A DNA stretch of 41,287 nucleotides, taken from Kiritimatiellia bacterium. Lineage in GTDB: Bacteria > Verrucomicrobiota > Kiritimatiellia > B70-G9. A model generated the notes under the pieces. It was not told the DNA's origin and ran no database searches. It saw only the letters and a list, made by a program, of their open reading frames with translations. The position numbers and the translations under genes are program-made. The stretch's first letter is position 1, and every line of letters starts with the position of its first letter. Location of the stretch: positions 1-41,287 of the forward strand of contig JAOZMZ010000008.1 in the NCBI GenBank assembly GCA_029934055.1, written 5' to 3'. This document shows positions 72 through 31,740 of this stretch, in pieces.

Positions 72-2657
72 TCAGCTCGAGGGCGGACGGGGTTGGATGC
101 TGAGACCGCGCAGGGTCATGGGCGCACCACGGTTGTAGACGAAGACGATGAAGAAAGGCAGGTTGGTTTTGTGAGTGTAGGAGGAGACAGCAGGGCGCCC
201 GGCAATAACGGTGGTCCAGCCGGTCTCGTCGGAATCGAAGCGGCGCACGTTGAATCGTCCCAGGACGGTGCCGCGTGAGGCGGGTGTGTCGAAGAGCAGT
301 CGGAGGGTATAGGTGCCGGGAGCGAGAGGGAGCTTGGGTCCGTAGAGGGTGATGGCGGCGGGATCGCGCCGTGGGCGCAGGAGTACGGCCCGATCAGTGG
401 GGCGGGTTTCTCCGGCGTGGAACAGGCAGGCGGCGGGGATAAAGATTTCTTTTCCGGGTTGCATGGCAAGGCCGTTCCAATCACCGGCGGCGAGGAGGAC
501 GCAATCGAGGTCGATGCGCCCGCGGGCGCCGAGGCGCAGGGCGATCCTGGAGAAGTCGCTGATGTTGCAGGGCGCCGGGTACCATTGCCAGGCGGCGGAG
601 TCGAGGGAAATTTCGGTGCGCGCGAGGAGGGAGGTGGGCTGGAGGGTGTCGGCCAGGAGGGAGCCGCGCCCGCGGGCGCGGATGAGCCAGCGGAGGTCGG
701 GAGCGGGCGGGGACCAGGTGGAGCGCAGGGTGACCGACTGGGAAGGTTGGTCGAGACGCACGAAAGCGGCGGGGGAGGAGGGGTTGCCGGGGGCGAGGAT
801 GGCGGGGGAAGCGTGAAGATGTCCCTTTTCGGCCTCCCAGCGGCGCGAGGGGCAGATGAGCGGGCAGGGGGTGGTGGTGGATGTGGTGGTGGTGGAAGGC
901 CGCGGGAGGATTGTGAAGGCCCAGACGGGGCCGGCGTGGTGCAGGAGGCGCAGGCGCGGATTGTGCAGGAGACTGTCGAGTGTATAGGAGACGGCGAAGG
1001 GGCTCACCTTTTCGGGGAAGGCGTTTTCGTGGAGGATCACGGCGGTGACACCGCGGCGCAGGAGGTCGTCGAGAAGCGGAGGGGGGAGAACGCCGCTGTT
1101 GGCGGATACGAAGCGCAGAAAAACGTCGCGGTAATAGTGGCGGGTTATGATCGGGCAGTATCCGTTGACCATGCGGATGTCATAGAGGGAGGAATAGTAC
1201 TGGTAGAGTGAGGACCAGGCGGAATCGCCGGGCCAGAGGGGGATGGCGAGGGCGTGGGGCCGGGATCCTGTAGCGCGGGCCTCCGCGGCGACGGCGGCGT
1301 AGGCGTCCTGGCGGGAATCGAGCAGACAGATGGTGGGGCTGACCTGGCAGCGGTATTCGAGAAGGACGGCGGCGACGAGGAGGGCGAGGAGGCTGCTGCG
1401 GAGCGGGCGGGGAGGGAAGGGTGGGAGGGGTGGAATGAGGGCGGCGAGGGCGATTGCGAGGGCGGGGGCGAGGAAAAAGGGAGTCAGGCAGAATACCTTG
1501 CCGGGTTGGCGGATAAGTTTGAGACCGGGCAGGAAATGACGCGCGGTGGAGAATATGCGGCCGTGAAAGGGTCCGCGCGGACCGAGGGCGAGGGCCACGA
1601 CGGCGGTGACGGCGAGGGCGAAGATGAGCAGGAGGGTCAGGTCGTGACGGGCGGAGACGTCGGGTGCGAGTCGTTCGCGGGTGCGCCGGTGGAGGCGCAG
1701 AGCGCCGGCGCAGATGATGGCGGGGACGAGGAAGCCGAGATATATCTGGTTGGAGAGTCCGCGGAGGGAGCGCCACGCGAAGAGTCCGATGGGGCGCGGG
1801 GAATAGAGGGCGATTTCGCGGTAACTGCGCGAGCCGGCGTGGTGGGCGAGGAGGCTGATCTTGCGGGCGACGGCGAGGGAGTAGAGTCCGGCGGCGGCAA
1901 CGGCGGCGATGGCCGGCAGGAGGGCGAAGGTCACCGCCGGCAGGGAGCGCAGGCGCTGGGAGAGTGGGCCGGGCCGGATTGAAAAGGACGCCAGGCACCA
2001 CCATGGTGCCAGCAGGACCATGTAGAGGAAGGCATGGGCATCGGCGCAACGGGCGAAGATCACGGCGATCCCGGCCAGCAATCCCCCGGTGGGACGCGCA
2101 TTGCGCACGGCGATATCGAGTCCGAGCAGGAAGAGCGGGATCCAGGGCAATGCGAATTCCATCGGGCTGCCGCCGAGGGCGGCGTGCCACCGGAAAGGCA
2201 TGATGACCCCGAGGAGTGCGGCGTAGAGTGCGAAGGGTTCCCTGCGGACGAAGCGGCGCACGAGTAACCAGGTGAAGAGATATCCCAGCCAGAGGGCGAG
2301 CAGGCCGGTGAGGTTGCGGGCGGCGGCGCGGCCGGTAAGGGGTTCGAGGGCGGCGTAGACGGTGGAGAAGGGCAGGTAGTAATGGTAGAGCCAGAAGGGC
2401 TCCGGCGTACCGGCGTTGAATTGCCAGGGATCCTCGAACGGGGGGACGCGTCCGGCGAAGGTGCGCGCGGCGAGATGGAAGTAGTAGAGCTGCTGGAGAT
2501 GGTCACCGGGGATCATGGACCGGAGGTGATGCTTTTCGACGTTGCGGGCCCCGGAGGGAATTCCTTCGCCGAAATGCAGTGCCAGCGGCCAGGTGAATAT
2601 GAGCCATACAGCGGCGGCTACGAGGGCGCTGGTCGCCAGAAGGGTACGCGTTTTCAT
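72..2657 (-). CDS. Polytopic membrane protein, GT-C/YfhO-like glycosyltransferase with large C-terminal extracytoplasmic beta-rich (CBM-like) domains
   Basis: 861-aa ORF with about 12 hydrophobic segments in the N-terminal half and a PGDH acidic loop after TM1. It then has an MVNGY-type motif and VILH, a Thr-rich linker, and soluble domains with PGTYTL. Confidence 0.7.
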   Translation of the reverse strand: MKTRTLLATSALVAAAVWLIFTWPLALHFGEGIPSGARNVEKHHLRSMIPGDHLQQLYYFHLAARTFAGRVPPFEDPWQFNAGTPEPFWLYHYYLPFSTVYAALEPLTGRAAARNLTGLLALWLGYLFTWLLVRRFVRREPFALYAALLGVIMPFRWHAALGGSPMEFALPWIPLFLLGLDIAVRNARPTGGLLAGIAVIFARCADAHAFLYMVLLAPWWCLASFSIRPGPLSQRLRSLPAVTFALLPAIAAVAAAGLYSLAVARKISLLAHHAGSRSYREIALYSPRPIGLFAWRSLRGLSNQIYLGFLVPAIICAGALRLHRRTRERLAPDVSARHDLTLLLIFALAVTAVVALALGPRGPFHGRIFSTARHFLPGLKLIRQPGKVFCLTPFFLAPALAIALAALIPPLPPFPPRPLRSSLLALLVAAVLLEYRCQVSPTICLLDSRQDAYAAVAAEARATGSRPHALAIPLWPGDSAWSSLYQYYSSLYDIRMVNGYCPIITRHYYRDVFLRFVSANSGVLPPPLLDDLLRRGVTAVILHENAFPEKVSPFAVSYTLDSLLHNPRLRLLHHAGPVWAFTILPRPSTTTTSTTTPCPLICPSRRWEAEKGHLHASPAILAPGNPSSPAAFVRLDQPSQSVTLRSTWSPPAPDLRWLIRARGRGSLLADTLQPTSLLARTEISLDSAAWQWYPAPCNISDFSRIALRLGARGRIDLDCVLLAAGDWNGLAMQPGKEIFIPAACLFHAGETRPTDRAVLLRPRRDPAAITLYGPKLPLAPGTYTLRLLFDTPASRGTVLGRFNVRRFDSDETGWTTVIAGRPAVSSYTHKTNLPFFIVFVYNRGAPMTLRGLSIQPRPPSS

Positions 2658-2668
2658 CTTCGGGGTGC

Positions 2669-2697
2669 ATTCTGCCAGAGGAGGGGCCTACTGCCAA
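2669..2697 (-). promoter_or_regulatory. Putative sigma70 promoter for the GT-C gene (TTGGCA-17-CAGAAT)
   Basis: Hexamers with 17-bp spacing; the -10 element ends 11 nt before the ATG at 2657. Confidence 0.4.
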
Positions 2698-2713
2698 GAG
2701 TGCGGGTTAGCTC

Positions 2714-2742
2714 TTTACTGGCGGAAGGCGGGCGGCCAGAAT
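2714..2742 (+). promoter_or_regulatory. Putative sigma70 promoter (TTTACT-17-CAGAAT), divergent from the previous one
   Basis: Hexamers with 17-bp spacing upstream of the GGAGG RBS of the 2765 ORF. Confidence 0.4.
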
Positions 2743-2764
2743 AGCGGCGGAGTTTGACGGAGGC

Positions 2765-3217
2765 GTGATGAGGATCTGGATCGAGGGTGAGGAGCGCGAC
2801 GGGCTCGGCGCGGAGATCGCTGCGGGGGCGCGGCGCCTGCGGGAGGGCGGGAGCGCGCCGCGGTTCCTGGCGCCGCAACACAGTGCCCTGCTGCTGCGGG
2901 AAGCCGTCTCGGAAGAGGAATACGACCGGACGTACTCGCGCCTGCTGCAAATGCGCTGCGGTGTGGACACCGGGGATTTCAACGTCCCGCGGCGCAAGGG
3001 GCCGGCCGGGATGCTGGCCGGATGGGTACGGGCGCTGTTGTGGAGGGTGCTGCGCTACCAGCATGAACGCATGGCGTTGCAGCAGAACACGATCAATGAA
3101 CTGATCGCCGCGGCGGTGGAATTCGAACGGCAGAGACGCCGACGGGAGACAGGGGAACTGCGGCGGAGGATCGAGCAATTGGAGAAGGCGGCCGGGAGCG
3201 GCGGAGGGACGGGCTGA
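2765..3217 (+). CDS. Hypothetical protein with amphipathic helix and C-terminal coiled coil (glycan-cluster associated)
   Basis: GGAGG RBS before GTG/ATG (2765/2768). Sequence GWVRALLWRVLRYQ..QQNTINELI followed by a coiled coil. Ends 4 nt before the GT4 gene. Confidence 0.75.
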   Translation: MMRIWIEGEERDGLGAEIAAGARRLREGGSAPRFLAPQHSALLLREAVSEEEYDRTYSRLLQMRCGVDTGDFNVPRRKGPAGMLAGWVRALLWRVLRYQHERMALQQNTINELIAAAVEFERQRRRRETGELRRRIEQLEKAAGSGGGTG

Positions 3218-3221
3218 TTTC

Positions 3222-4301
3222 GTGAGGCGCGTTGACCAGATTCTGGCCGGGTACGCAGAGGGGGATGCGGTTTCGGGTATTGCGGTGGTGATCCGGGACG
3301 TTCTTCGTCGAATGGGATCGTCGTCGGAGATTTTCAGTGACCCGGAACGGACCGCCGCCGACCGCGTGGCGGCGGGTGACTGGCGGCCGCTGGGGGAATA
3401 CGACGGAGGGCGGGACGACGTCCTCATTTATCATTATTCGAGCGAGAGTCCGGCGACGGACGTATTTCTGGGTACGCGCGCGCGGCGGATTCTCGTCTAC
3501 CACAATATCACCCCGGCGGAATGGTACCGCGGTTACGATGATCGGATTGCGGGGGAACTCGCGGAGGCGCGTTCCCGCCTGCCGGCAGCGGCGGGGGCGG
3601 CGGATGCGGTGTGGGCGGTTTCCGATTACAATGCCGGGGAGTTGCGGCGGATGACGGGGGTGGGTGAGGTCAGGGTATGGCCGCCGCCGCTGGACACCGC
3701 GCGGCTGGACGTGGCGCCGGACGCGGCGGAGGTGGAGAAGTTGGCGGGGGGGCTGGTGAATTTCCTGTTTGTGGGAAGGCTGGTGCCCAACAAGTGCGTT
3801 GAGGATCTGATTCTGGCGTTCGCGTGGTACACGCGGGCGATCAATCCTCATGCGCGCCTGGTGCTGGCCGGTTCCGGGAAGGCTGTTCCGCGTTACACGG
3901 CCATGTTGCGCATGCTGGCCGGGGAACTGAAACTGGAGAACGTATGTTTCGAGCGTTTTGTTTCGCCGTCCGGGCTGGCGGCGTGTTACCGCAGGGCGCG
4001 GGTGTTCGTCACCGCCAGCCGGCACGAGGGATACTGTCTGCCCTTGCTGGAGGCGATGTATGCGGGAGTTCCGGTGATTGCACGGGCGGCGGGCGGAATG
4101 CCGGAGGCCGTAGGGTCTGCGGGCATCCTCGTGGACGATTTCGAGGCCGAGGAGCTGGCGGTGGTGATGGACAAGGCGGCGCGGGACGGGGACCTACGGC
4201 GGGCGCTGCTGGCATCCGGAAAGGCACGCATAGCGGCTGAGACGGGACGCGACCTGGAGAAAGAACTGGGTTCACTCCTGGCGCCTTTCGGGGTGGTTTG
4301 A
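3222..4301 (+). CDS. Glycosyltransferase family 4 (GT-B)
   Basis: GDAVS N-terminus, YHNITP, FVGRLVPNK, and EGYCLPLLEAM (EX7E motif). Confidence 0.92.
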   Translation: MRRVDQILAGYAEGDAVSGIAVVIRDVLRRMGSSSEIFSDPERTAADRVAAGDWRPLGEYDGGRDDVLIYHYSSESPATDVFLGTRARRILVYHNITPAEWYRGYDDRIAGELAEARSRLPAAAGAADAVWAVSDYNAGELRRMTGVGEVRVWPPPLDTARLDVAPDAAEVEKLAGGLVNFLFVGRLVPNKCVEDLILAFAWYTRAINPHARLVLAGSGKAVPRYTAMLRMLAGELKLENVCFERFVSPSGLAACYRRARVFVTASRHEGYCLPLLEAMYAGVPVIARAAGGMPEAVGSAGILVDDFEAEELAVVMDKAARDGDLRRALLASGKARIAAETGRDLEKELGSLLAPFGVV

Positions 4302-4312
4302 GGGCCGGGCGG

Positions 4313-5446
4313 TTATTCCGGCGGGGAAGACGGATCGCTGATGAGTGTGCCGTTTCTGATCAGCTCCAGGGAGGGGTTTTGTGGGAATGAGAGGACGAGG
4401 CTCTGGACAGTGAGCTTGCCGCCGGGGGGATAGACTTCGTCCTGATGGACGATACATTCCCGGTTGGTGAAGCCGGCAGGACCCACTGTTCCTCCAAGAT
4501 GGTCGCTGCGCCCGCATGCCCAGTGAAAGCCGGTTTTTTCATCCTCGATGATGTTGCCGCTGACGACGGCCTTTTCGTTGCAGCCGAGGCCGAGCTCGGC
4601 GATGTTGCGGCGGGCCGGATCGCATGCGAAGAAGCGCTGAAGTTCCCGGGCCGGCGCGCCGTCGCCGTGGACGGCCCGGACGCGGTTGGCGCTGACTTCG
4701 AGACGGAGAATGCGTCCTTCGCGGAGGACGGGGAGGATGCCGGCGGTACGACTGGGATCGGAGGGCCTTTCGCCCTCGTAGGGCGCGATGTAGGCTTCGC
4801 CGCCGGGAAGATTGATGAGGGGAAAATCGGTGTCGGGTGTGCAGCGGCCGCCGTCGGCGTGTCCGCGGCGGTGACGCAGGTCGAAAACGAAGACGTCGCC
4901 GGTCGAGAAGACCGCGCGGGCGGATTCGGCATCGTTCAAAAGGCGGGCCAGGCGGTCGGCAACGCGGGCGATACGGCGGTAATCGGCGGCCAGGGCGGTA
5001 TGTTGCATGGCGGGCGATACGCCCGGCATGCTGGCGATACGGCATCCGCCGGGACCGGGACGGACGAAGGCACTGAGAGGGGCGGTGGCGGAAAACTCCG
5101 TCATGGCGAGAACGATGTTGAACGCGGCCACCGTTTCGGCGATGGAGCGTTCTTCTTTGCCGTCGAGGAGTCCGGTGGCGGGCAGGGGGGCGTTATGGGC
5201 GCCGGTCGCCGGGAATAGGAGAATAGGGGGCGGGGGCAGCCCGCAGCCGGGGAAGGCGTTCCGCCATTCCCGGGCCATACGGCGGCGGCTGCGCCAGGCG
5301 GGGTTATCGGGGACACCGTCGCGGGGAACGTCCACCATGATGAGTGCGGATTCACCGGGACGGGGATCGAAGACTTCGCGCAGGAGACGCGGGAGGTTGA
5401 AGTCCGAGGGCGGTGAAGCTTGTCCTGAGGGTGAGTTTTTTTCCAT
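4313..5446 (-). CDS. Aminopeptidase, M29 (thermophilic metalloprotease/AmpS-like) family
   Basis: [37 protein letters not shown] and VHQD motifs. Start moved to ATG 5446 with a GAGGAG RBS. Confidence 0.8.
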
Positions 5447-5457
5447 GGACGCTCTCC

Positions 5458-6102
5458 TCAAGCATAGTCGCGCGAGGGGCAATCCTCGCGCACGGGGCAT
5501 TTCCGGCAGGCCGGTTTGCGGGCCGTACAGCAGTAGCGGCCGTGAAAGACCATGGTGTGGGAGAAGGAACCCCAGGAGGTACGCGGGATGAGTGCCTTGA
5601 GATCCTCTTCGATTCGGGCCGGGTCGTTGTTGTCGGTCAGTTGCAGGCGACGGGCGACGCGGCGGCAGTGGGTATCGACCACGAGTCCCGGCTTATGGAA
5701 GGCGACGGCCATCATCAGGTTGGCGGTTTTGCGTCCGATGCCGGGAAGCGAGACGAGTGTCTCGAAATCGTCGGGCACGCGTCCGCCGAAATCTTCCGCC
5801 AGACGACGGGTGAGAGCGATGATGTTGCGGGCCTTGTTGCGGAAGAACCCGGTGGAACGGATTTCATTTTCGAGCACGGCCTGCGGTACGCCGGCCCAAT
5901 CGGCGGCGCTGCGGTACTTGCGGAAGAGCTCCGGCGTGACACGGTTGACGCGTTCATCGGTGCACTGGGCGGAGAGGATGGCGGCGATGAGCAGTTCCAG
6001 GGGATTGTTGAAGTTCAGTTCGCAGCGGGCGTCGGGATATGCGCGGCGGAGCTTGCGGGCGATCCGCCGCGCCCGTTCCTTGAGTTGGGGCGAAATTTTC
6101 AT
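5458..6102 (-). CDS. nth: Endonuclease III
   Basis: [17 protein letters not shown], Hh[15 protein letters not shown], and the 4Fe-4S motif C-x6-C-x2-C-x5-C. Start moved to ATG 6102. Confidence 0.97.
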
Positions 6103-6137
6103 TCCGTCACCTTGCGGCCGTACGCCGCTGGGTCCGG

Positions 6138-8363
6138 TCAGCGCCGTCGCCGCCGACCGCCACGGCGGTCGGAACCCCGCCGAGATTCGCGGCGGGAGTC
6201 GCGTTGGGGCTGGGCATGCTGTGCGGCACCGGCGGGCGGCTGTTCCTCGCCGGGCTCTTCGAGGCCCTGTTCGCGACGGTCGTCCAGGGCGGCGCGGCGG
6301 CTGAGGCGCACGCGACCCTGGTCGTCGATGCTGATACACTTGACCCACATCGGGTCGCCGATCTTGCAGATATCCTCCACGCGGCCGACGCGGAAATTGG
6401 CCAATTCGCTGACGTGGACGAGTCCTTCCTTGCCGGGAAAGATTTCCACGAAGCAGCCGAAGTCCTTGATGGAGGTGACCTTGCCGCGGTAGATCTTGCC
6501 GATTTCCGCCTCGGCGGTGACGGCCTCGATTTCGCGGATGGCGGCATCCATGGCGGGTTTATCGGCACTGTAGACATTCACGGTGCCGTCTTCCTCGACG
6601 TCTATCTGCACACCGGTGGTTTCGGTGATGCGGCGGATGGTCTTGCCGCCGGGTCCGATGAGGGCGCCGATTTTTTCGCGGTCGATCTTGATGCGTTCCA
6701 CGCGCGGTGCGTAGGGGGAGATATCGCCGCGTGGGGCGGCCATGACGCCGTCCATGAAGTCGAGTATATGCATGCGTGCGGTGTGCGACTTGGCGACGGC
6801 CTGCTCGAGGATTTCCCAATCAAGACCGGGGATCTTGAGGTCGAGCTGGAATCCGGTGACGCCCTGGCGGGTGCCGGCGAGTTTGAAATCCATGTCGCCG
6901 CAATGGTCTTCGTCGCCGAGGATATCCACGAGCACGGCGGCACGATCCTTTCCGGTGATGAGGCCGATCGAGATTCCGGCGACGTTGCGTGTGGTCGGTA
7001 CGCCGGCGTCCATGAGGGCGAGTGAACCGGCGCAGACGCTGGCCATGGAGGTCGACCCGTTGGACTCCATGATTTCCGATACCACGCGCACGGTGTAGAC
7101 GTAGTCGGGCGGCATGACGGGAACCAGGGAGCGTTCCGCGAGTGAGCCGTGACCTATTTCGCGCCGGCCGGGTGACCCGATCCGGCGGACTTCGCCGACG
7201 CTGTAAGGCGGGAAGTTGTAGTGGAGCATGAAACGTTTTTCATCCGGTCCGCCGGCGAGGGCATCCATGGCCTGGGCATCGGAGATGGTGCCGAGCGTAA
7301 TCGTGGCCAAGGCCTGGGTTTCTCCACGGGAGAAGAGGGCGGAGCCGTGGGTGCGCGGCAGGATGCCGACCGCGGCGTCGAGCGGACGGACTTCATCGAA
7401 GCCGCGACCGTCAATGCGGCGGGTTTCCTCGAGAACCATGCGGCGGACGAGTTCTTTTTCAAGGTCATGGAAAGCGTTCTTGAAGTCTTCCTCGGACAGT
7501 TCGGGGTTTTCTTCCCTGAGGGAGGCCAGGATTTCATCATAGAGTTGGTCGAGGGTGCGGCTGCGATCCCGTTTGGCGGATATGGTGAGCGCCGTGTGCA
7601 TGCGGTCGGCGGCCAGTCCGCGCAGGCGTTCGAGAAGGGAGTCGTCCTTTTCGGGTATGGAAATTTCCTTGTCGGGAAGGCCGCACATGCGGCGCAGCTC
7701 GAGCTGGGCCTCGACCAGTCGGGTGACGAACGGCTGGGCGAAACGCATGGCTGCGGGAATGACCTCATCGGGCACTTCGCGGGCGCTGCCTTCGATCATC
7801 ATGGGCAGATCGCGGGTACCGACGTAGAGCAGGTCGAGATCGCTGTTGTCGAGTTCGGCGTGGGTGGGATTGACGATGAATTCGCCGTCAACGCGTCCGA
7901 TACGGACGGCGGCGATGGGGCCGAGGAAGGGGATATCCGAGAGGGTCAGGGAGGCGCTGGCGGCGGTGATGCTGAGGATATCGGCGTCGAAGTCGCCGTC
8001 GGCGCACAGAAGTGTATTCATGATCTGGACGTCGTTGCGGTAGTCCTCGGGGAAGAGGGGGCGGATTGGGCGGTCGGTGGCGCGGGCGGTGACGATTTCC
8101 TTTTCCGTGGGGCGCGCCTCGCGTTTGAAATAGCCTCCGGGGAAACGTCCGGCGGCGTAGAATTTTTCGCGATATTCCACCTGAAGGGGGAAGAAATCTA
8201 TGCCTTCGCGCACGCTCTTGGATGCGGTTGCGGCCGAAAAGACGATGGTATCGCCGATTCTGGCGGTGACGGAGCCGCCCGCCTGGCGGGCGAGCAGGCC
8301 GGTTTCGAGACGGATCTTACGGCCGCCGATTTCGGGTTCGACTGCGATGATGTTCTTGTTCAT
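6138..8363 (-). CDS. pnp: Polyribonucleotide nucleotidyltransferase (PNPase)
   Basis: Two RNase PH domains ([33 protein letters not shown]), plus KH (IGPGGK) and S1 domains. Confidence 0.99.
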
Positions 8364-8785: not shown

Positions 8786-8844
8786 GGTCTGATTCAGACG
8801 CTTCTCCTCTACTTCTTTCTGCTTTCTGTTTGTGTCGAGGCCGG

Positions 8845-8873
8845 ACTATAAAGGTGGCGGTGAGCTTTGTAAA
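8845..8873 (-). promoter_or_regulatory. sigma70 promoter of rpsO-pnp (TTTACA-17-TATAGT) with an upstream A-tract
   Basis: Near-consensus hexamers with a 17-bp spacer. An A8 tract at 8889-8896 (minus strand) lies in the UP-element position. Confidence 0.7.
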
Positions 8874-8931
8874 GAGCATCTTGCGTGCTTTTTTTTCGGC
8901 CCCGTAGGGGCCGGCACCGGCGGGAACTGGC

Positions 8932-8960
8932 TTTCATTTTGCGGGCGGGCGGGTTAGATT
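8932..8960 (+). promoter_or_regulatory. Putative promoter for the OB-fold/TctA/YdjM operon (TTTCAT-17-TAGATT)
   Basis: Hexamers with 17-bp spacing about 40 nt before the ATG at 9000. Confidence 0.4.
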
Positions 8961-8999
8961 GGCAATGAACGAGTGCGGCGCTTGTGAGGGTCCGTAAGC

Positions 9000-10520
9000 A
9001 TGAGGGTGGTGGCTATGAACGCGGAAAGTCTTCCCGGCCAGCAGGAATATCGCGAGCAGATCATCTGTCCGAGTTGCGGGCGTTTCGTCGGTCCGCTGAC
9101 ACGTTGTCCGTATTGCGGGGCGCGGATCCGCAAAAGGTTGAGCGTGCGGCTGTTTCGTTACCTGGCGCTTCTGCTGGCGACGGTGGGGCTGTTTTTCTTG
9201 TATCTGATGGCCACCCACCGGGAGGTGCCGCGTATCCGCGTGGGAGATATCCGTCCGACGATGAATTTCGCCTACGTGCGGGTGGCGGGACTGGTGAGCA
9301 GCGATGCGCGCATATACCGGGAGGGGGATGCGGTGCGCAGTCTGCGGTTTACGGTCGACGACGGCAGCGGTGAGATTCCGGTGACGGCTTACCGGGCGCA
9401 GGCGCGGGAGCTGGTGGCCTCCGGGCGGGTGCCGCGAATGGGGGACAAGGTTGAAGTCGCCGGCAGCCTCAGCGTAGCGGCCGACGACCGGGTGATGATG
9501 CGCCTGCAGAGTCCCGACCAGCTCATACTGACGCGGGCGGAACTCCCCCTGATGCCGCTGGGAAGTGTGAGCACGAACGACGTGGGCCGCAGTATAATGG
9601 TAAAAGGTGTGATAAGCGACATTCGGGCGCCGCGTCCCAACAGCCGGGCGCCGTGGCTGATTCGGGTGAGTGATTCTTCCGGCGAAAAGGGGATATCCTT
9701 CTGGGATGACACGTATGCGGAGATCGCGGACAAGGACCGCCTGGTGCCGGGCGCGGCGGTGCGCGCGCGGGTGAGCGTGGGGACTTTTCGCGGACGGGTT
9801 CAGTTGCGGCTTGCGAGCGGCCGGGATCTCGAATTTCTGCAGGGAGAAGAGGCGGCGGCGGTTTCCGCGGGTGTGCGGCCGGAGGGACGCTACGAGAGAA
9901 CGCCGATCAGCGCCTTGAAACCATCCATGGTGGGGCGGGAAGTCGAAGTGAGCGGGCGGGTTCTGGACGTGCGGCCGCCCAGGGAGGGTTCGCGGGCTCC
10001 CTGGCGGGTGGTGCTGGAAGAGGATGGGGCCCAGGTGATGGTGGTCTACTGGGACAAGGTCGCCCGCCATCTGCGGGCGAAGCGGCCGGAGAAGGGCGCC
10101 TATCTGGTGGTTCGCGGGCGTTTGGCGGTTTACCGCGGCAGGCTTCAGCTCAAGGTGAGCAATTCGCGGGATATCGAGTTGACGCGGGCCCCGCAGCATG
10201 CGCCGGACGCCGGCAGCGGCGGGGGCGGGATTCTTCCGATAGCGAAGATCACTCCCGAGATGAAAGGGCGCATCGTGCGGGTTCGGGGTATATTGGGTCA
10301 GGCGCGTTCGATTCCCGGCGGGGTGGTTTATCAGTTGAAGGACGACAGTGGGGAAATAAAGGTGGTTCTGTGGGATCGTTTCGTTTCCGGGGAGGCGCGC
10401 GACGCGCTTGATACGGGCCGGCGGGTGCGGGTGAGCGGGAAGGTGTCCGAATATCACGGGCAGTTGGAGATAGTTCCTCAAGGTGCCTATCAGGTGGTGG
10501 TCGAGGACGGCGGAGAATGA
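9000..10520 (+). CDS. Membrane-anchored protein: Zn ribbon + one TM helix + four tandem OB-fold nucleic-acid-binding domains
   Basis: CPSC-x8-CPYC, a basic stretch, then TM LALLLATVGLFFLYLMA. Four repeats follow the pattern V.V.G.V ... DxSGEI.V..W ... G..V.V.G.V..Y.G.LEI (RPA/tRNA-anticodon-type OB). Alternative start at 9015. Confidence 0.88.
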   Translation: MRVVAMNAESLPGQQEYREQIICPSCGRFVGPLTRCPYCGARIRKRLSVRLFRYLALLLATVGLFFLYLMATHREVPRIRVGDIRPTMNFAYVRVAGLVSSDARIYREGDAVRSLRFTVDDGSGEIPVTAYRAQARELVASGRVPRMGDKVEVAGSLSVAADDRVMMRLQSPDQLILTRAELPLMPLGSVSTNDVGRSIMVKGVISDIRAPRPNSRAPWLIRVSDSSGEKGISFWDDTYAEIADKDRLVPGAAVRARVSVGTFRGRVQLRLASGRDLEFLQGEEAAAVSAGVRPEGRYERTPISALKPSMVGREVEVSGRVLDVRPPREGSRAPWRVVLEEDGAQVMVVYWDKVARHLRAKRPEKGAYLVVRGRLAVYRGRLQLKVSNSRDIELTRAPQHAPDAGSGGGGILPIAKITPEMKGRIVRVRGILGQARSIPGGVVYQLKDDSGEIKVVLWDRFVSGEARDALDTGRRVRVSGKVSEYHGQLEIVPQGAYQVVVEDGGE

Positions 10521-11851
10521 GTCTGGTACTGACAGTAGTGGTGTCGGTGCTCATCGGCACGCTGATTTCGACGGTACTTTCGTGCCTGCCGGGGTTGCAT
10601 GTTTACAACGTCATCGGGTTGCTGGTTCTCCTGGTGTTGACCCTGGGCTCGCACGGGGTCACCTTGCCGCCGGAGGTGTACCTGCCGTTCATCGCGGGAA
10701 TGATCGTGGGCTGGTCCATGCTGAACACGATTCCCTCGGTTTTCCTCGGGGCGCCGGATGAGAGTGCGATTTTCACCGTGTTGCCCGGGCAGAAGTATCT
10801 CATGTTCGGGCGGGGATTCGAGGGAGCCATGATCACCGGGGTCGGCGGCCTGGCGGGGGTGTTTTTCCTGGTGCTGGTGGTGGGACCTCTGGCCCCGCAC
10901 TATTTGCCGGTGGTCCAGCAGGTCATGCGGCCGCATATGCACTGGGTCCTGTGGGTGATCATAACCTATATTCTCATGTCCGAGTGGCCCAAGGGGGGTA
11001 ACTGGGGCCCGGCGGGCTGGTCGAAATTCTTCGACGCATGGCGTTCCCTTCTGGCGGGACTGGCGACTTTTCTGCTGGCGGGCCTGCTGGGGTTCATCCT
11101 CCTCTACCGTTCGCCGGTTTCGACGGACATGGCTTTTCAGAACATCATGCCGGCGTTCGTCGGGCTGTTCGCGGTCCCCTGGTGTCTGGTGAACATGATA
11201 AGCGGCGTTTCCGTGCCGGAGCAGCATGTCGCCGCATCCCTGGATATAGACGGGGACGTTATTCTGCGCAGCGTCGGGGCGGGTGGGCTGGGGGGTGGTT
11301 TCGCGGCCTTCTTTCCGGTGATCACCGGTGGTGTGGGGGGACTCCTGGCAGGGCATGCCACCGCCCAGCGCGACGAGCGCGTCTTCCTGATGTCGCAGGG
11401 GGTTTCCAAACTGGTCTACTATACCGGTGCTTTCATGCTGGCCTTTGTTCCGGGGCTGGGTATTACGCGTGGCGGAGGCGCCTGGTTGATCCGGACGCTC
11501 TACACCCCGCGCACGTACTATGACTATTTCATGATTCTGGGCGCGGTTGCTATCGGCGGTGCGGCGGCGTATCTGATGATGGAACCGCTGACGCGCGGGA
11601 TCATATGGCTGATCCGGAGGTTCAACTACCGCTACGTGTCGGCGGCGGCGCTGGTGATCATCATGGCGCTGGTATACGCCATCACCGGCTGGGTGGGGAT
11701 TTTCATTGCCGCGGTGGGTACAGGGATCGGACTCATCCCGGTGCTTTTTGCATCACGGCGGCTGAACTGTCTCGGCATCCTGTTGTTGCCGATCGCCTGC
11801 AACATGTCGGGCGTCGGGCATCACGTGGCGGCCTTTTTGCATTTGGTATGA
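10517..11851 (+). CDS. TctA/DUF112-family (tripartite tricarboxylate transporter-like) permease, archaeal-type
   Basis: About 12 TM segments; LPGLHVYN and IPSVFLGAPDESAIFTVLPGQKYLMFGRG motifs. ATGA overlap with the upstream gene. Confidence 0.85.
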   Translation: MSLVLTVVVSVLIGTLISTVLSCLPGLHVYNVIGLLVLLVLTLGSHGVTLPPEVYLPFIAGMIVGWSMLNTIPSVFLGAPDESAIFTVLPGQKYLMFGRGFEGAMITGVGGLAGVFFLVLVVGPLAPHYLPVVQQVMRPHMHWVLWVIITYILMSEWPKGGNWGPAGWSKFFDAWRSLLAGLATFLLAGLLGFILLYRSPVSTDMAFQNIMPAFVGLFAVPWCLVNMISGVSVPEQHVAASLDIDGDVILRSVGAGGLGGGFAAFFPVITGGVGGLLAGHATAQRDERVFLMSQGVSKLVYYTGAFMLAFVPGLGITRGGGAWLIRTLYTPRTYYDYFMILGAVAIGGAAAYLMMEPLTRGIIWLIRRFNYRYVSAAALVIIMALVYAITGWVGIFIAAVGTGIGLIPVLFASRRLNCLGILLLPIACNMSGVGHHVAAFLHLV

Positions 11852-12852
11852 AGGGTATATCACATTTTATTTCCGGGGTGGCGGCGGCGTCGTTCTGCCC
11901 GTGGGCGGTGCAGGCGGCGCAGGAGGGCAACCCTCTATATTTTATCCTGGGAGGAGCTTTCGGGCTCCTGCCGGACACGCTGGACTTCAAGTTCTACAGG
12001 TTTTTCTACCGCCACGAGATGTACGTCGATCCGGACCCCGAGAATCCCGATCCGCAGGCCATCGCGGATGCACTGGCGGATGCCGTGAGGCGCGCGGGTG
12101 AGGAGGGCCGACGGGTGCGGATAAAGCTGAACACCATCCGGCTCGGAGCGGATTTCTGGCGCCAGTATGTGGTCAAGTTCGATCCCGATGCCGGGGAGGT
12201 TCTGGTACGGTTCGGGCCGGTGGTGAATACCGGGCAGGTCCCCGTTCCGGGCACGGGAGGGGACGAGCGGGTCGGCCGGGCGAAGCTGGCGTTTCCGGTT
12301 GTGCAGACGTACGATGCGACGACGAGCGTGGACATCTTCGATGGCCCGACGTTCGCTTTCACGCGCGATGAGAGCGGTCGGGTGGTGATTCATTTTCTGC
12401 CGTGGCATCGGGAGTGGTCGCACAGCTTCGTTATCGGGGCGTTGTTCGCGCTGGCGGGGTGGGCGCTGTGGAGCTGGAAGGCGGCGGTGGTGATCATGGC
12501 GGGCTACTCGATACACGTTTTGGAAGACCAACTCGGGTTCATGGGTTCGAATCTCTTTTTTCCGTTTTCGCGGCGTCGTTTTCCGGGCATACACCTGATG
12601 CGTTCGGGAGACGCCCTGCCGAACTTCACGACCGTCTGGACCAGTTGCCTGCTGATATTCTGGAACCTGTATCGCCAGGGTCCGCCGTCGATATACAACT
12701 TTAGTTTTCTGCAACTGTTGGTATACGGGGCGGTATTGCCGCTGGGGTTGTTTGCGGCGGCGATCTACTTCGTGCGGCGGCTTTCCGGCGGGGGGGAGGA
12801 AAGCGAGGAGATAGACCTCTCAGACGAGTGGGGCGATCCGAAGATGTCGTGA
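11848..12852 (+). CDS. YdjM/DUF457-like membrane-bound metal-dependent hydrolase with a large soluble insertion
   Basis: MKGISH, LLPDTLD, HREWSHS and HVLEDQLGFMG..LFFPF motifs. True start is ATG 11848 (ATGA overlap with the TctA stop). Confidence 0.85.
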   Translation: MKGISHFISGVAAASFCPWAVQAAQEGNPLYFILGGAFGLLPDTLDFKFYRFFYRHEMYVDPDPENPDPQAIADALADAVRRAGEEGRRVRIKLNTIRLGADFWRQYVVKFDPDAGEVLVRFGPVVNTGQVPVPGTGGDERVGRAKLAFPVVQTYDATTSVDIFDGPTFAFTRDESGRVVIHFLPWHREWSHSFVIGALFALAGWALWSWKAAVVIMAGYSIHVLEDQLGFMGSNLFFPFSRRRFPGIHLMRSGDALPNFTTVWTSCLLIFWNLYRQGPPSIYNFSFLQLLVYGAVLPLGLFAAAIYFVRRLSGGGEESEEIDLSDEWGDPKMS

Positions 12853-12943
12853 ACTTCCGCGTGCGGGGGGGGAGGAAGAGCCGGATGTTGCCAAGAGTAT
12901 GCGGCAGCGGATAAAGTAGCCTGCCGACAGGAGACGAGCGAGG

Positions 12944-13684
12944 ATGAAAGGCGTGGTATTGGCAGGCGGACTGGGAACGCGATTGTATCCCCTGACGAAG
13001 ATCACCAACAAGCATCTGTTGCCGGTGTATGACCGGCCCATGATCTACTACCCGATCCAGATGCTGGTGGAGGCGGGCATCACGGACATAATGATCGTGA
13101 CCGGGGGCAACGGCGCCGGTGAGTTTCTGAGGCTGCTGGGCAACGGCCGCGATTTCGGGTTGAAGCGGATTCACTACACATACCAGGAAGGCGAGGGCGG
13201 CATTGCCGACGCGCTGGGTTTGGCGGAGGAATTCGTCGAGGGCGACAAGGTCGTGGTCGTACTCGGTGACAACCTTCTCGAAAGGGGGATCCGTAGCGGC
13301 GTGGAGTCTTTTCGCCGCCAGCAGAGGGGGGCACGAATATTCCTGAAGGAGGTCGAGCATCCCTGGGAATACGGGATCGCGCAACTCGAGGGGGAGCGTA
13401 TCACCGGGGTGATCGAGAAGCCGCGCGAGGATGTCGGGCGCCTGGCGGTGATCGGGGTCTACATGTACCCGGCGGACGTTTTCGACGTGGTGCGGGGTTT
13501 GAAACCGTCGGCGCGCGGTGAGCTGGAGATTACGGATGTCAACAATCATTACATTGAACGCGGCGAGATGGAATACGAGATCGTCGAAGGCTGGTGGGTG
13601 GATGCGGGCGAGAACCACGGCGCCTTGCTGCGCGCCAACATCATGGCCGCGCGCCTGGGCGGCGAGGGGGTGTCACTGGAATGA
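12944..13684 (+). CDS. rmlA: Glucose-1-phosphate thymidylyltransferase (short SpsI-like form)
   Basis: LAGGLGTRLYPLTKITNKHLLPVYDRPMIYYP, LGDN, EKP and SARGELEITD motifs. Confidence 0.93.
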   Translation: MKGVVLAGGLGTRLYPLTKITNKHLLPVYDRPMIYYPIQMLVEAGITDIMIVTGGNGAGEFLRLLGNGRDFGLKRIHYTYQEGEGGIADALGLAEEFVEGDKVVVVLGDNLLERGIRSGVESFRRQQRGARIFLKEVEHPWEYGIAQLEGERITGVIEKPREDVGRLAVIGVYMYPADVFDVVRGLKPSARGELEITDVNNHYIERGEMEYEIVEGWWVDAGENHGALLRANIMAARLGGEGVSLE

Positions 13685-15553: not shown

Positions 15554-17860
15554 ATGAGCGGCATGGCGATGGACGAGCATGCGCTGGAGATTTTTCGGCG
15601 GACGTTGAGTCTGGACGAGTCTGAGCTGGAGGCGACCTATACCGAATTCCGCAGCCGCCGGGACGATAAGAAGGCGGAGGCCGCATCCGAGGAGGACGAA
15701 TTCCTGTCCTACCTGCGCCGCCGGGGCGTTATTTCGGACGACACCTACCGCCGCGCGGCGGCGATGATGCCGGTCGAGGTGACCGGTCGGGCTGGGGCCT
15801 CTTCGGTGATGGAATCCATCCGCTACGACCTGTTCGATACCATCGCCGAAGGCGCCATGGGTACGATCGTCGTCGGCCGGGACCGCGATCTGCGCAGGAA
15901 GGTTGCGGTCAAGATCCTCAAGGCCGAACCGGTTTCGGAGGATGTCCTGCGGCGTTTCATCGGCGAAGCGCAGGTCACTGCGCAGCTTGATCATCCCAAC
16001 ATCGTCCCGATCTACAGCCTCAACATTTCTCCGGAAGGCAGCGTTTCGTTTGCGATGAAGTTGGTGCATGGCAAGACCCTCAGAGAATTCATCGCCGAGA
16101 CGCGGGGGCAGTACCGCGCGCGCGGGCGTCCGGACGGTGAACATTCCCTGCACGCCCGGCTGGCGGTTTTTCTGAGAGTGTGTGATGCGATCGCTTTTGC
16201 CCACAGCAAGGGAGTGATCCACCGCGATCTCAAGCCCGACAATATCATGATCGGCGAGTTCGGGGAGGTGTACGTCATGGATTGGGGGGTGGCGCGGGTG
16301 GTTTCCGGGAAGGGGGAGGGCGGGGAGTGCGCGGAGAACGTCGTTCCGTCACCGTCCGACGAATGCAAGGTCATCGGCACGCCGCGTTACATGGCCCCGG
16401 AACAGGCCCGCGGCGAGTGCACGCGGGTGGACGAGCGCAGTGATCTTTATGCGCTTGGGATAATGCTTTTCGAGTTGACGTTGCTCAAGCCGGCTCGGGA
16501 GGGAGAGACCCTGCGGGAGATGCTGCGCAATGCCGAGGAGGGCAGGCTGGCACCGCTGGAACACGCCGTGGCCGGTGAGCGGGTACCGGTGGAAATCAAG
16601 GCCATTGTGCGCCGGGCGACGGCGTTGAGGATGGACGAGCGCTACGCTACTGTCCGGGAGCTGGCGGATGATATCCGCCGGTTTCTGCGTGGCGAAGAAG
16701 TCCGGGCGAAGCCGGATACGCTGATTCAGAAATACGCGCGCATTCTCGGGCGCCACCGTTACGGTGCGCTGGTGGCGTTGCTGGCGGCATTCGGCATTGC
16801 GGGTGTGGGAGGCAGCTTGGGGTTGTACGCCCGGATCAAGTCCATGCGGCTTGCGCACTTGCGGGAGAACCGCCTGGCGGCGTTCCAGTCGTCCGTGGCG
16901 CGGCGCAGTCACCTGATAGATAGTCATTTCGTACGCCTTGAAGAGAAGGCGATTCATCTGGCACGCAGCAGTGCCCTGCTGCTCGAGCACGGCAGGCCGG
17001 CCGGGACGGCGGTGTATGAGTACAAGGCCTTCGGCCGGCATGGTGAGGGTGTGCCGGGGTTGGCGTACGCCCCGGCTTACGGCATGCGCGTCAGCCTGGA
17101 ATACCCGGCCTGCAAGGTTCCCGAAGGTCATACGTTTCGCGAATCGGAGGAGAGTTTCCGCCGTTTGGCCCCCTTGAGAGAAGAAATGCGCGGGATTCTC
17201 GAGGGCAGCCGCATTGATCGTGAAAAGGATCCGCACTGGTGTATCAGGGTGCCGGGCACTGTGGTCAAGTGGGCCTACGTGGGGTTGGAAGGCGGTGAGT
17301 ACATGTGTTATCCGGGGTCGGGCGACTATCCTGCCGACTACGACCCGCGCCGCAGGCCGTGGTACCGGCGGGCCGTTGAGGCCGACGCGCCGGTATGGAG
17401 CCGGCCGTATGTAGACATCGACGGGCATACTCTGGTGCTGACTTGTTCGGTTCCAATTCACGGTCGCGAGGGCGGGCTGTTGGGGGTGGCCGGAATAGAC
17501 TTGCTGGTCGAGGCGATCGTGGAGAACTACGCCAGACCCGCCGCGCGGAGGGCGATATCTTCGGGGACGGAAGCGGCGCCGGTACTACGGGCCTGGCTGT
17601 TGGATGGTGAGGGGCGTATCCTGATTGACTCAGGCGGGGGGCCGCGTCCGGGTAGGATCGAGGAAGGAGTCTTCAAGCCGGCGTTATTCTTTGATGAACA
17701 GGTGGTGAGATCTGCCAGGCTGGGGCGACCGGGTCTCTTTCACCGCGGACACGGGCGTAGCGCCCGCGCTCTTGTGAGTTGTCCGGTACCGTCGCTGGGG
17801 TGGGCATATGTGGAGTCGGCGGACATGGGCTGGCTGCTGGGTGACGCCTTTTTCAGATGA
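15554..17860 (+). CDS. Membrane Hanks-type Ser/Thr protein kinase with extracytoplasmic dCache sensor domain
   Basis: AEGAMG, VAVK, HRDLKPDN, DWG and GTPRYMAPE kinase motifs; one TM helix; then YDPRRRPWY...PYVD...GVAGID Cache motif. Confidence 0.92.
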   Translation: MSGMAMDEHALEIFRRTLSLDESELEATYTEFRSRRDDKKAEAASEEDEFLSYLRRRGVISDDTYRRAAAMMPVEVTGRAGASSVMESIRYDLFDTIAEGAMGTIVVGRDRDLRRKVAVKILKAEPVSEDVLRRFIGEAQVTAQLDHPNIVPIYSLNISPEGSVSFAMKLVHGKTLREFIAETRGQYRARGRPDGEHSLHARLAVFLRVCDAIAFAHSKGVIHRDLKPDNIMIGEFGEVYVMDWGVARVVSGKGEGGECAENVVPSPSDECKVIGTPRYMAPEQARGECTRVDERSDLYALGIMLFELTLLKPAREGETLREMLRNAEEGRLAPLEHAVAGERVPVEIKAIVRRATALRMDERYATVRELADDIRRFLRGEEVRAKPDTLIQKYARILGRHRYGALVALLAAFGIAGVGGSLGLYARIKSMRLAHLRENRLAAFQSSVARRSHLIDSHFVRLEEKAIHLARSSALLLEHGRPAGTAVYEYKAFGRHGEGVPGLAYAPAYGMRVSLEYPACKVPEGHTFRESEESFRRLAPLREEMRGILEGSRIDREKDPHWCIRVPGTVVKWAYVGLEGGEYMCYPGSGDYPADYDPRRRPWYRRAVEADAPVWSRPYVDIDGHTLVLTCSVPIHGREGGLLGVAGIDLLVEAIVENYARPAARRAISSGTEAAPVLRAWLLDGEGRILIDSGGGPRPGRIEEGVFKPALFFDEQVVRSARLGRPGLFHRGHGRSARALVSCPVPSLGWAYVESADMGWLLGDAFFR

Positions 17861-22700: not shown

Positions 22701-22846
22701 ACATCGCGCGGCTGCTCGAAAAGCAGGGGCGGCGGGCGGAGGCCCTGCGCCTGGCGGAGTCGCTATTGCCGCGCGTGGCCGACATGCCGCCGGCGGCCTA
22801 TGAGGAAGTCCGTGATCTGGTCAAGCGAACCCGCGGGGCGCGCTGA
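19718..22846 (+). CDS. DUF2723/TMEM260-like GT-C membrane protein (degenerate motif) with long C-terminal TPR array
   Basis: N-terminus LYLITLSPGAFPGESAAL...PPMSHQVW...VNVFSAFCGA parallels DUF2723. About 12 TM segments, then many TPR repeats (DPHN..ALLGLA, DPEN, WDTLG). Confidence 0.8.
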   Translation: MNESYRRMIAAAIFAGVLVLYLITLSPGAFPGESAALLAQHAGLDPFPPMSHQVWGWFVKMLAMVPVGGLAFKVNVFSAFCGAAAVALIFYLVSLIPHDRMQEEAEAHFDAGRVGLISGAAAAVFAAVSIPVWIVGTRAHPAAFDVLLGLVFVAVVVHVGRGGKTWLLYPAALLYGIGTTEFATLITWAPVAAVAVLFVCWRRGMLRAGPLLGMLGCYLAGLSLYFLFARQYQASAAFGWRGFHTYFEALWFVWREQYRAIAKSVPQVGWLLVFIVTVLPGIIIFVRKRGGNRATVRGSYMLNAVLAVIGLAVLFNARIAPWSLLKWRPLLVTPYMVAATWMGYLAGYWYIVISQRSRFDTRVPAAVKRVMRPLYLPGLGVVVLLALVMNGRVADGRQAGAIIRLADEIVAGMGPAKWLVSDGALDDNIVITAHDQGKNIRLLSMARAGASPYLDYISTLFDDPRLQVMARIGVRPLLGEWLRRDPGAAGDLMVMGNPDLWLANGYQELPQRVLYRGVPDYKGVDAAAVFESHLSFWETEGRALAEMAQRRGLLQGWYRWAARYVSKAADNLGYALEEMERPGLAFRAYAEARRIDTNNVSALLNMLMLADREKMPEAAKIQAEFDGFVKGLRSKLKIWSLAYHFGYVRRPEAFLDRGFAWALSGKPNMAIADLENAVRLGARGSPVQLALATLYFRQNRVEESRKTYLDVLRKDPHNTAALLGLARIAMRRGDFDTARNYLDRLAALKVPAAVILLERVALESLVGNRTEARKLLESLVEKDPENMKAWAALAVMAQQDGDTKTVDRCLEKIKKKGGGYPSVRMALAELALGQGDFDAARENLLALLKIRPDNRRALELILQIDMRQANRADAEEHAEQLLKVDPENAVGNLVLGGLHLLREEYALAEDCFRVSLAQQRTAWALNELAWVLHKQGRDKEALPIAEEAVRKGPRNGAAWDTLGVVAMETGHYQRSREALDQAMSMRPGSAVVTLHIARLLEKQGRRAEALRLAESLLPRVADMPPAAYEEVRDLVKRTRGAR

Positions 22847-22938
22847 GTGACGGGTGCTGGCGGGTATTCTGCGGGTCGCTTTGCGGCCACAGAGCGGCAG
22901 GAAGACACCGCCTGCTGATATACAATTACGGGGGAACC

Positions 22939-23061
22939 ATGATCGGCCGGGCGGTCTTGGAAAGCCGTGCCGTGAGCCTGTATCTGATGCCGGCGCTGGC
23001 GGCCCTGGGGATGCTGCTGTTCTGGGTCCCGCGGGGAGGCTGGCGGCAGCCGGCGGCGGTT
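22939..23061 (+). pseudogene. Probable gene remnant or small membrane peptide (about 40 codons with one TM-like segment)
   Basis: TACAAT at 22921-22926 and a GGGGGA RBS precede the ATG. 36 of the first 40 codons end in G/C, then the bias collapses at 23059. Confidence 0.4.
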
Positions 23062-23117
23062 CTAGTTGTGCCATCTGGTTGCATGATGCGTAGCTGTGTT
23101 CACCGTTCGCTTCCCGT

Positions 23118-26090: not shown

Positions 26091-26267
26091 TTTGTAAACG
26101 TCTCCAGCCGAGTTTATGACCGGCGCCGGGAGGCGGCGTTCGAGATCAACCGCGACAAATTTTTCGCCCGTACGTCCAGGTGGGGCGCACGGGAATACCA
26201 TCCCGGCCAGAATCGGGAGAGACTATTGGGCAAGCGCGTCGGATAGTCAAGCGTGCGGGCGCGCTTT

Positions 26268-31595: not shown

Positions 31596-31740
31596 CTTGT
31601 CGTTTTTCCTTTCGCTGTGAGGGGTTCTCGTCTCTCCGGAGTAATGGTGGCGATGCGGGCGGGTTTTGTCCAGATCGCAATGGGGGGCGTGGGTGCGGGG
31701 GGGCTTGCGCCGGGACGGGCGGGGGATGTATTCTCGGCGC

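Follow-up and report, generated by a model that had tools for sequence, protein, structure and literature searches.

Which substrate is handled by a membrane-anchored array of OB folds, a TctA-like permease and a YdjM-family membrane protein that are encoded side by side is the question raised by three adjacent genes on contig JAOZMZ010000008.1 of a Kiritimatiellia bacterium (assembly GCA_029934055.1; 2.2 Mb, 115 contigs, 88.9% complete). The first 41,287 nucleotides of this contig, referred to here as the window, were analysed, and the genes, named gene 1, gene 2 and gene 3 in the order of their reading, code for proteins of 506, 444 and 334 amino acids, respectively (Table 1). At both junctions the sequence reads ATGA, so that the stop codon of one open reading frame (ORF) overlaps the start codon of the next, as had been described in an earlier note on this DNA. 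That note proposed a novel uptake system for nucleic acids that would be a functional analogue of ComEA/ComEC; every check named there that could be run turned out in its favour, as the three-gene unit, the type of the permease, the link to archaea and the modelled contact between OB protein and permease show, but the proposal is qualified by the published archaeal gene pair, by the presence of ComEC and by a putative hydrolase site that probably faces the cytoplasm. The present analysis, in which operon structure, domains, conservation, family placement and docking were computed, reveals that the three genes form a real, conserved membrane module. We consider it plausible, with confidence and doubt about evenly balanced, that this module captures and imports single-stranded nucleic acid or oligonucleotides, for scavenging more than for classical competence, and that it is a bacterial variant of a pair of archaeal genes to which a YdjM-like enzyme has been added.

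Of 151 genomes sampled from the phylum, 17 contain gene-2-like genes, and exactly these 17 also contain gene-3-like genes, which are absent from the remaining 134. A gene-1-like match is present in all 17 permease carriers and in 23 genomes in total, with the other six being weaker OB matches; since the sampled genomes are mutually related, the co-occurrence in 17 of 17 overstates the number of independent events. The close type of the module (permease 52-74% identical) occurs in 14 genomes, in all of which the OB and permease genes are adjacent according to their coordinates, while the YdjM-like gene lies next to the pair in 12 (in one case interrupted by a contig break) and on another contig in two. 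A paralogous set (permease 32-35% identical) was found in six genomes, four of which contain a complete adjacent triad. This paralogous Kiritimatiellia module (L094-L097; G077:C4, G149:C11, G065:C8, G050:C12) possesses two tandem genes with zinc ribbon, transmembrane (TM) helix and OB folds, a permease that is 34-35% identical to gene 2 and a YdjM-like gene of 408 amino acids.

Beyond the phylum, a pattern scan of species-representative genomes yielded 80 loci (65 bacterial, 15 archaeal), whose ORFs were searched with iterated hidden Markov models. The bacterial loci come from Verrucomicrobiota/Kiritimatiellota, Lentisphaerota, Chloroflexota, Planctomycetota, Spirochaetota and Fidelibacterota and comprise 67 permease genes. 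An OB gene is located directly upstream of 56 of these and nearby in one case, it is absent in eight cases, and two loci leave no room for it; a YdjM gene is located directly downstream of 35 and nearby in seven, absent in 18 and without room in seven; both partners are adjacent in 30 of the 67, and these neighbourhood counts are lower bounds, as the permease ORF of L015 is over-called and hides the OB gene and the YdjM sequence of L048 lies inside an N-bridged permease ORF. A full-length YdjM-like gene is encoded elsewhere in all five Anaerolineae genomes tested (E 1e-92 to 1e-128) and a gene-1-like gene elsewhere in all four Planctomycetota genomes tested; the gaps in adjacency are therefore not losses. 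No further neighbours recur across phyla, and only lineage-specific ABC/MCE-type genes and antisense ORFs are found repeatedly. The triad is thus adjacent or co-present elsewhere, both within the phylum and across phyla, and its association is beyond chance, as the gene order recurs in many unrelated contigs of several phyla. Some of the carriers are cultured Pontiellaceae isolates (L027, L028).

Two candidate natural fusions were identified among the database representatives, each of which is one predicted protein and could be due to a gene-calling error: in P0317, a TctA-like protein carries a zinc ribbon and a TM helix (hhalign 96%, E 2.4e-9), and P0277 combines OB repeats with a TctA-like protein through a Ser/Thr linker (hhalign 81%, E 1.3e-5). 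A third one, a TctA-YdjM fusion of 810 amino acids (L048:3117-5546), was rejected as an artefact, because it contains a run of X derived from N bases between the genes. Two unusual arrangements were also seen. The module is found twice in tandem with identical permease copies at L003:4419-10978, which is either a true duplication or an assembly repeat, and two divergent modules on opposite strands of the Lentisphaerae contig L014 are arranged back to back (positions 2034-8324), with permeases that fall into different clades of the permease tree.

Gene 2 matches the TctA profile PF01970 from position 2 to 422 of 423 (E 6e-32, 111 bits, cut-off 28.9), and it is the only PF01970 match in the window's assembly. 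In the 88.9%-complete genome, no match was found to either TctC (PF03401) or TctB (PF07331). In the phylum sample, the PF01970 scores are bimodal: three canonical TctA proteins reach 445-475 bits, compared to 48-125 bits for proteins of the gene-2 type. A phmmer search with gene 2 against 1.84 billion cluster representatives retrieved just 1249 matches at E<=1e-3, and a jackhmmer search seeded with gene 2 did not reach the canonical TctA loci. Clusters of archaea are also indicated for gene 2 by the Atlas, which is to be taken as a lead only. In a quick maximum-likelihood tree (116 rows, LG+G4, SH-aLRT support), the sister group of a bacterial clade (85 rows, support 96) is an archaeal clade (29 rows, support 97), which contains proteins of Woesearchaeota, Nanoarchaeota, Aenigmatarchaeota, Hydrothermarchaeales and Methanobacteriota. 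A branch of 1.16 (support 100%) sets the two valid canonical TctA rows apart; a third canonical row (L084, end branch 5.35) stems from a wrongly chosen ORF and was disregarded, while the tree was kept as built. Permeases of the gene-2 type from archaea and bacteria share the motif IPS..LGAPD. Judged by profile scores and tree, gene 2 is not a canonical TctA protein but belongs to the archaeal TctA-like type, in line with its description as an orphan permease and with the possible archaeal connection raised in the earlier note.

Gene 1 matches PF01336 in four stretches (E 1.5e-25) and PF13742 in three (E 2.6e-19). Weak zinc-ribbon matches were obtained with Pfam for residues 19-46, and the NCBIfam matches are all sub-threshold OB matches (XseA, RecG, YhaM and archaeal SSB/RPA models). 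A hydropathy scan detected one hydrophobic helix at about residues 49-67, with RIRKRLSVRLFR just before it. Together with the PF04307 match of gene 3 described below, Pfam and hydropathy thus recover the gene contents that had been read from the translations, namely a zinc ribbon, one TM helix and four OB folds in gene 1, a TctA-family protein in gene 2 and a YdjM-family protein in gene 3. The true start of gene 1 is probably the ATG at 9015 (MNAESLPG...) and not position 9000, because relatives begin with M-x(2-5)-LPG and a GAGG precedes this ATG. At E<=1e-3, 345 relatives of gene 1 were found, and those that are named belong to Kiritimatiellae/Verrucomicrobiota/Lentisphaerae MAGs. Conservation among 47 aligned relatives is highest in the Cys4 ribbon, in the basic patch, in the helix and in OB1, which contains the PTMNF motif and is the best conserved of the OB folds. 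At least 90% of these sequences retain C23, C26, C36 and C39; the cysteines of the ribbon are absent from some Pontiellaceae-type relatives. The number of OB folds varies from about one to seven, that is, OB1 plus none to six others, and the folds are separated by Pro/Thr-rich linkers in the Anaerolineae relatives. The sole PDB sequence relatives of the gene-1 OB folds are archaeal replication factor A proteins, a weak match with an E value of 7.5e-4.

Complex prediction with the permease and residues 1-190 of gene 1 gave a score of 0.62 (median of 0.68, 0.62 and 0.61), whereas the best of three controls scored 0.00; of 80 solved complexes, 58 attain the score mark used, as do 2 of 110 mismatched pairs, rates that are rough here given the custom alignments. 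The runs share at least 83% of their contacts, and the pLDDT of the partner is at least 70. In the model, the gene-1 helix (residues 49-77) packs on residues 187-209 and 396-411 of the permease, and OB1, which contributes residues 85-93, 132-134, 154-162 and 170-174 to the interface, covers permease residues 38-45, 228 and 326-330 and the C-terminus, which is free of lysine and arginine. The N-terminal end of the helix comes to lie near the almost invariant permease residues R414 and R415. The permease loops on the side of OB1 contain on average 0.2-1.0 lysines plus arginines, compared to 1.7-3.7 for several other loops. No PDB sequence relative was found for the permease, and a docking score derived from a memorised structure is therefore unlikely. 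Taken together, the modelling supports docking of the gene-1 helix and OB1 on the permease without proving it, in line with the receptor role proposed in the earlier note. The basic patch N-terminal of the helix, the docking geometry, the distribution of lysine and arginine in the loops, the Pro/Thr-rich linkers and the fusions favour an orientation in which the ribbon is cytoplasmic and the OB array is located outside the membrane.

The third protein matches the YdjM profile PF04307 (E 1.7e-14, 54.1 bits, cut-off 29) in two stretches that are split by an insert, the better of which covers residues 182-254 after the insert; the Atlas clusters nearest to gene 3 also belong to PF04307. Residues D43, T44, D46, R188, H192, H223 and D227 are invariant in 51 sequences, and H6 and H187 are conserved in at least 90% of them; the conserved histidine and aspartate residues form a putative metal site, which would make the protein metal-hydrolase-like. 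An AF2 model based on the alignment of these 51 sequences (pLDDT 91.2, pTM 0.86), which replaced an alignment-free run with a pLDDT of 49, contains six helices and an alpha/beta insert of around 130 residues at about 55-185. In the 51 sequences, loop 229-255 contains on average 3.8 lysines plus arginines, while loops 26-29, 208-209 and 278-286 contain almost none. According to the positive-inside rule, both termini are therefore probably located in the cytoplasm, with the His/Asp cluster and the insert at the cytoplasmic face. Any processing by gene 3 would therefore take place after transport and not in the periplasm. A search with the gene 3 sequence against the PDB gave nothing below E 1. 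The idea that gene 3 adopts a P1-nuclease/phospholipase C fold found no support in PDB sequence, Foldseek or VIA-align comparisons, and the fold may nevertheless be of this kind. The YdjM family is uncharacterised, and its members are under SOS (LexA) control in E. coli and S. aureus; inspection of nine upstream regions by eye, without a formal search, revealed no conserved LexA operator.

A pair of genes of this kind has been described for archaea, and all statements on that work refer to the accessible part of its text. In Methanococcus maripaludis, MMJJ_13020 encodes an OB-fold protein with a single TM helix and the adjacent MMJJ_13030 a TctA-like protein (Fonseca et al. 2023, PMC10133366). 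Both genes were found in transposon screens for transformation, in-frame deletion of either one abolishes transformation, and complementation rescues it (PMC10133366). A TctA-like homologue is essential for transformation in Methanoculleus thermophilus, too. The authors suggest a role as DNA transporter in archaea, which lack TctB, TctC and ComEC; DNA passage across the archaeal membrane is unsolved, and the OB-fold/TctA-like pair is the sole transporter candidate (PMC10133366). The paper to which the earlier note alluded thus exists and goes beyond what is said there, since the adjacent single-TM OB gene is essential as well. In four Aenigmatarchaeota loci of our cross-phylum set, an OB ORF of 92-132 amino acids lies directly upstream of the permease gene; three of the four (126-132 amino acids) possess an N-terminal TM helix, and the one of 92 amino acids is cut by the contig end. 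Altogether, an adjacent OB gene is present in 4 of 15 archaeal loci compared to 56 of the 67 bacterial permease genes. Short PF04307 genes are encoded elsewhere in all five DPANN genomes tested, with four over the cut-off (two of the genomes are unpublished). A full-text literature search, which covered articles but no supplements, retrieved one passing mention of the MMJJ genes as later work and no paper that joins the TctA, OB-fold and YdjM families. The combination of an OB protein and a TctA-like protein is thus already in print for archaea, and the system is not wholly novel. Features that appear to be new are the occurrence in bacteria, the third partner, the docking model and a hydrolase that faces inward.

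In the mechanism that we propose, the three proteins would form one inner-membrane module. Gene 1 would be anchored by its single helix, with the zinc ribbon in the cytoplasm and the RPA-like OB array outside the cytoplasmic membrane. Its helix and OB1 would sit on gene 2, an archaeal-type TctA-like secondary-transporter protein, and gene 1 would act as a tethered receptor that replaces both TctB and TctC. The OB array may capture single-stranded nucleic acid or oligonucleotides in the periplasm, which would then be imported through or together with the permease, and the YdjM-family, metal-hydrolase-like gene 3 would process them hydrolytically at the inner face. We infer from the computed features what the ligand is, in which direction and form it is transported and which activity the enzyme has. 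It is tempting to speculate that the many DPANN relatives and the carriers from sediments and vents reflect the scavenging of environmental nucleic acid.

Several points weigh against this mechanism. The nature of the ligand is deduced from the type of OB fold alone, and the gene-1 ectodomain carries a positive net charge in just 15 of 47 relatives, with a median pI of 6.0 and a pI of around 4.4 in the Anaerolineae. TctA-family proteins belong to small-anion transporters, and none of them is known to let a polymer through. A ComEC gene (PF03772) is present on contig C69 of the window's genome, separate from the module, as is a DprA gene in the same genome, and ComEC is encoded in 147 of the 151 sampled phylum genomes including all 17 module carriers. 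Classical DNA import is therefore already covered, and the module is no replacement for ComEC; for the same reason, scavenging (DNA or RNA feeding) or a distinct form of the substrate is likelier than a substitute for competence. No thermonuclease of the SNase type (PF00565) was found in the window's genome. The model of gene 3 gave no Foldseek match at E<=1e-3, and its best wide Z in VIA-align was 6.8, among unrelated helical proteins, so that no clear structural relative points to its chemistry. On the archaeal side, a YdjM-like gene is a neighbour in none of the 15 loci, the 120 permease relatives listed include no Methanococcus protein, and the M. maripaludis pair was likened to the window pair by its published description and by the placement of the window permease beside archaeal TctA-like proteins. 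Furthermore, the archaeal result, in the part of the text available, shows necessity only and is not proof of a DNA channel (PMC10133366). The relatedness of the sampled genomes, mentioned above, belongs on the same side.

Some of these points suit a different ligand better. The module might be a secondary transporter with a tethered receptor for a non-nucleic ligand, such as a small anion, a phosphoester unrelated to nucleotides or an oligosaccharide, with the OB array in place of the soluble binding protein and the YdjM-like protein hydrolysing the import. Membership of the TctA family speaks for this, as does the finding that 32 of 47 ectodomains are not net positive and often acidic; the carriers include Kiritimatiellales, Victivallales and Anaerolineae, which we take to be glycan-degrading lineages, and DNA import is already provided by ComEC. 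However, PF01336 and PF13742, to which the OB folds are assigned, are families that bind nucleic acids, archaeal replication factor A is their only PDB sequence relative, the variation from one to seven OB folds suits a polymer better than a small ligand, and archaea require the counterpart pair for transformation with DNA in M. maripaludis (PMC10133366). On balance, we regard a non-nucleic ligand as unlikely, if still a serious contender. We judge it quite unlikely that the module serves envelope maintenance or the response to stress, with the YdjM-like protein acting on membrane lipids and the archaeal transformation defect being an indirect effect on surface or pilus assembly. A phospholipase-like role has been suggested for E. 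coli YdjM, the Kiritimatiellales module is often found beside ABC genes resembling Mla-type lipid transport (named by eye), and necessity is all that the accessible archaeal work establishes (PMC10133366); but only a single lineage has the Mla-like neighbours, whereas conservation of the triad extends over several phyla, and this explanation has no role for an RPA-like OB array docked on a transporter.

That gene 2 belongs to an ordinary TctABC tricarboxylate transporter, whose TctB and TctC are encoded elsewhere or in the missing 11% of the assembly, is suggested by the PF01970 match above the cut-off and by a genome that is just 88.9% complete. This view is largely refuted and very improbable: TctC and TctB were not found in the window's genome, gene 2 scores 111 bits compared to 445-475 bits for canonical TctA proteins of the same phylum, from which it is separated by a long branch, the jackhmmer search misses the canonical loci, and the conserved partners are OB and YdjM genes. 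The idea of an import of single-stranded nucleic acid or oligonucleotides could also be taken further. We consider it rather doubtful, and put it forward as a tentative idea, that bacteria and archaea share a second, ComEC-independent machine for nucleic-acid import, in which single-stranded DNA or RNA would be handed from the tethered OB array to a TctA-like passage and acted on inside by a YdjM-family enzyme. If true, the long-sought DNA transporter of archaea would have its bacterial form here, and the YdjM family would gain a first function. Since the pair is conserved in at least five bacterial phyla, the archaeal DNA-transport question becomes testable in bacteria, for which the docking model, the topology and the constant third partner now offer starting points. 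Moreover, the YdjM family is now tied to nucleic acid via the OB protein.

The features of the module are listed in Table 1. Upstream of it, genes for PNPase and rpsO are located on the opposite strand, and rfbA/D/B-like genes follow downstream, as read from the translations without a profile scan. The intergenic region between the divergent rpsO and gene 1 contains a perfect GC-rich hairpin (CGGCCCC GTA GGGGCCG) that is preceded by eight T (window positions 8890-8917). The GC skew of the plus strand is strongly positive throughout positions 1-41287 (0.12 to 0.37 in 2-kb windows), including the minus-strand pnp/rpsO genes. Three long minus-strand ORFs at 72-2657, 2654-3427 and 4313-5500 (861, 257 and 395 amino acids) have no Pfam match at E<=1e-5. 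Other genes of the window, at 15554-17860, 19718-26201 and 31666-34110, encode a Ser/Thr kinase with a dCache sensor, two large TPR proteins with TMEM260-like glycosyltransferase domains, and FtsK; no link between these and the module was seen. PADLOC gave no match to the proteins of genes 1, 2 and 3 that would indicate a link to defence. DNA near-identical to window positions 8800-13000 is contained in sequencing runs of several studies that are labelled hydrothermal vent metagenome, and no RNA runs were among the matching runs listed.

Table 1. Positions of the module genes and their parts in the window.
Feature	Position	Strand	Basis
Gene 1, membrane-anchored OB-fold array protein	9000..10520	+	ORF, PF01336 and PF13742, 345 relatives
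Cys4 zinc ribbon, residues 23-42, predicted cytoplasmic	9066..9125	+	weak Pfam matches, Cys conservation
Basic patch and single TM helix, residues 43-72	9126..9215	+	hydropathy scan, flank charges
OB fold 1, residues ~78-178, PTMNF motif	9231..9533	+	conservation; limits drawn by eye from repeats
OB folds 2-4, residues ~186-280, ~300-393, ~411-503	9555..10508	+	Pfam stretches, repeats
Gene 2, archaeal-type TctA-like (PF01970) permease, 444 aa	10517..11851	+	ORF, Pfam, tree
ATGA overlap of gene 1 and gene 2	10517-10520	+	
Gene 3, YdjM-family (PF04307) six-helix membrane protein, 334 aa	11848..12852	+	ORF, Pfam, AF2
ATGA overlap of gene 2 and gene 3	11848-11851	+	
Gene 3 inserted alpha/beta domain, residues ~55-185, predicted cytoplasmic	12010..12402	+	model, loop charges

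With the TctABC system, known from citrate uptake in Salmonella, the module shares a PF01970 permease and a receptor that is predicted to be located on the outer face of this permease. However, the window module has neither TctB nor a soluble TctC, its receptor is tethered to the membrane and built of OB folds, and its permease, with around 440 amino acids, has a far lower family score and belongs to a separate clade. The proposed logic of a membrane receptor for DNA, a passage through the membrane and a metal hydrolase resembles that of ComEA/ComEC, and ComEC itself carries OB-like and metallo-hydrolase-like parts. There is, however, no sequence relation between the two, none of the proteins encoded by genes 1, 2 and 3 matches PF03772, and the hydrolase-like protein of the module is predicted to face inward. 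Gene 3 and E. coli YdjM are linked by the PF04307 match above the cut-off and the conserved His/Asp residues; gene 3 differs in being about twice as long, in its alpha/beta insert of 130 residues and in its location in a transporter operon. The M. maripaludis pair, as described in the accessible text, likewise consists of a single-TM OB protein beside a TctA-family permease and comes without TctB and TctC (PMC10133366), and the window permease is sister to the archaeal TctA-like proteins. Compared with the archaeal neighbours examined, bacterial gene 1 has an additional N-terminal zinc ribbon and one to seven OB folds instead of one, the bacteria link a YdjM-like third gene to the pair (adjacent to 35 of 67 permease genes, compared to 0 of 15 in archaea), and the bacterial hosts also possess ComEC.

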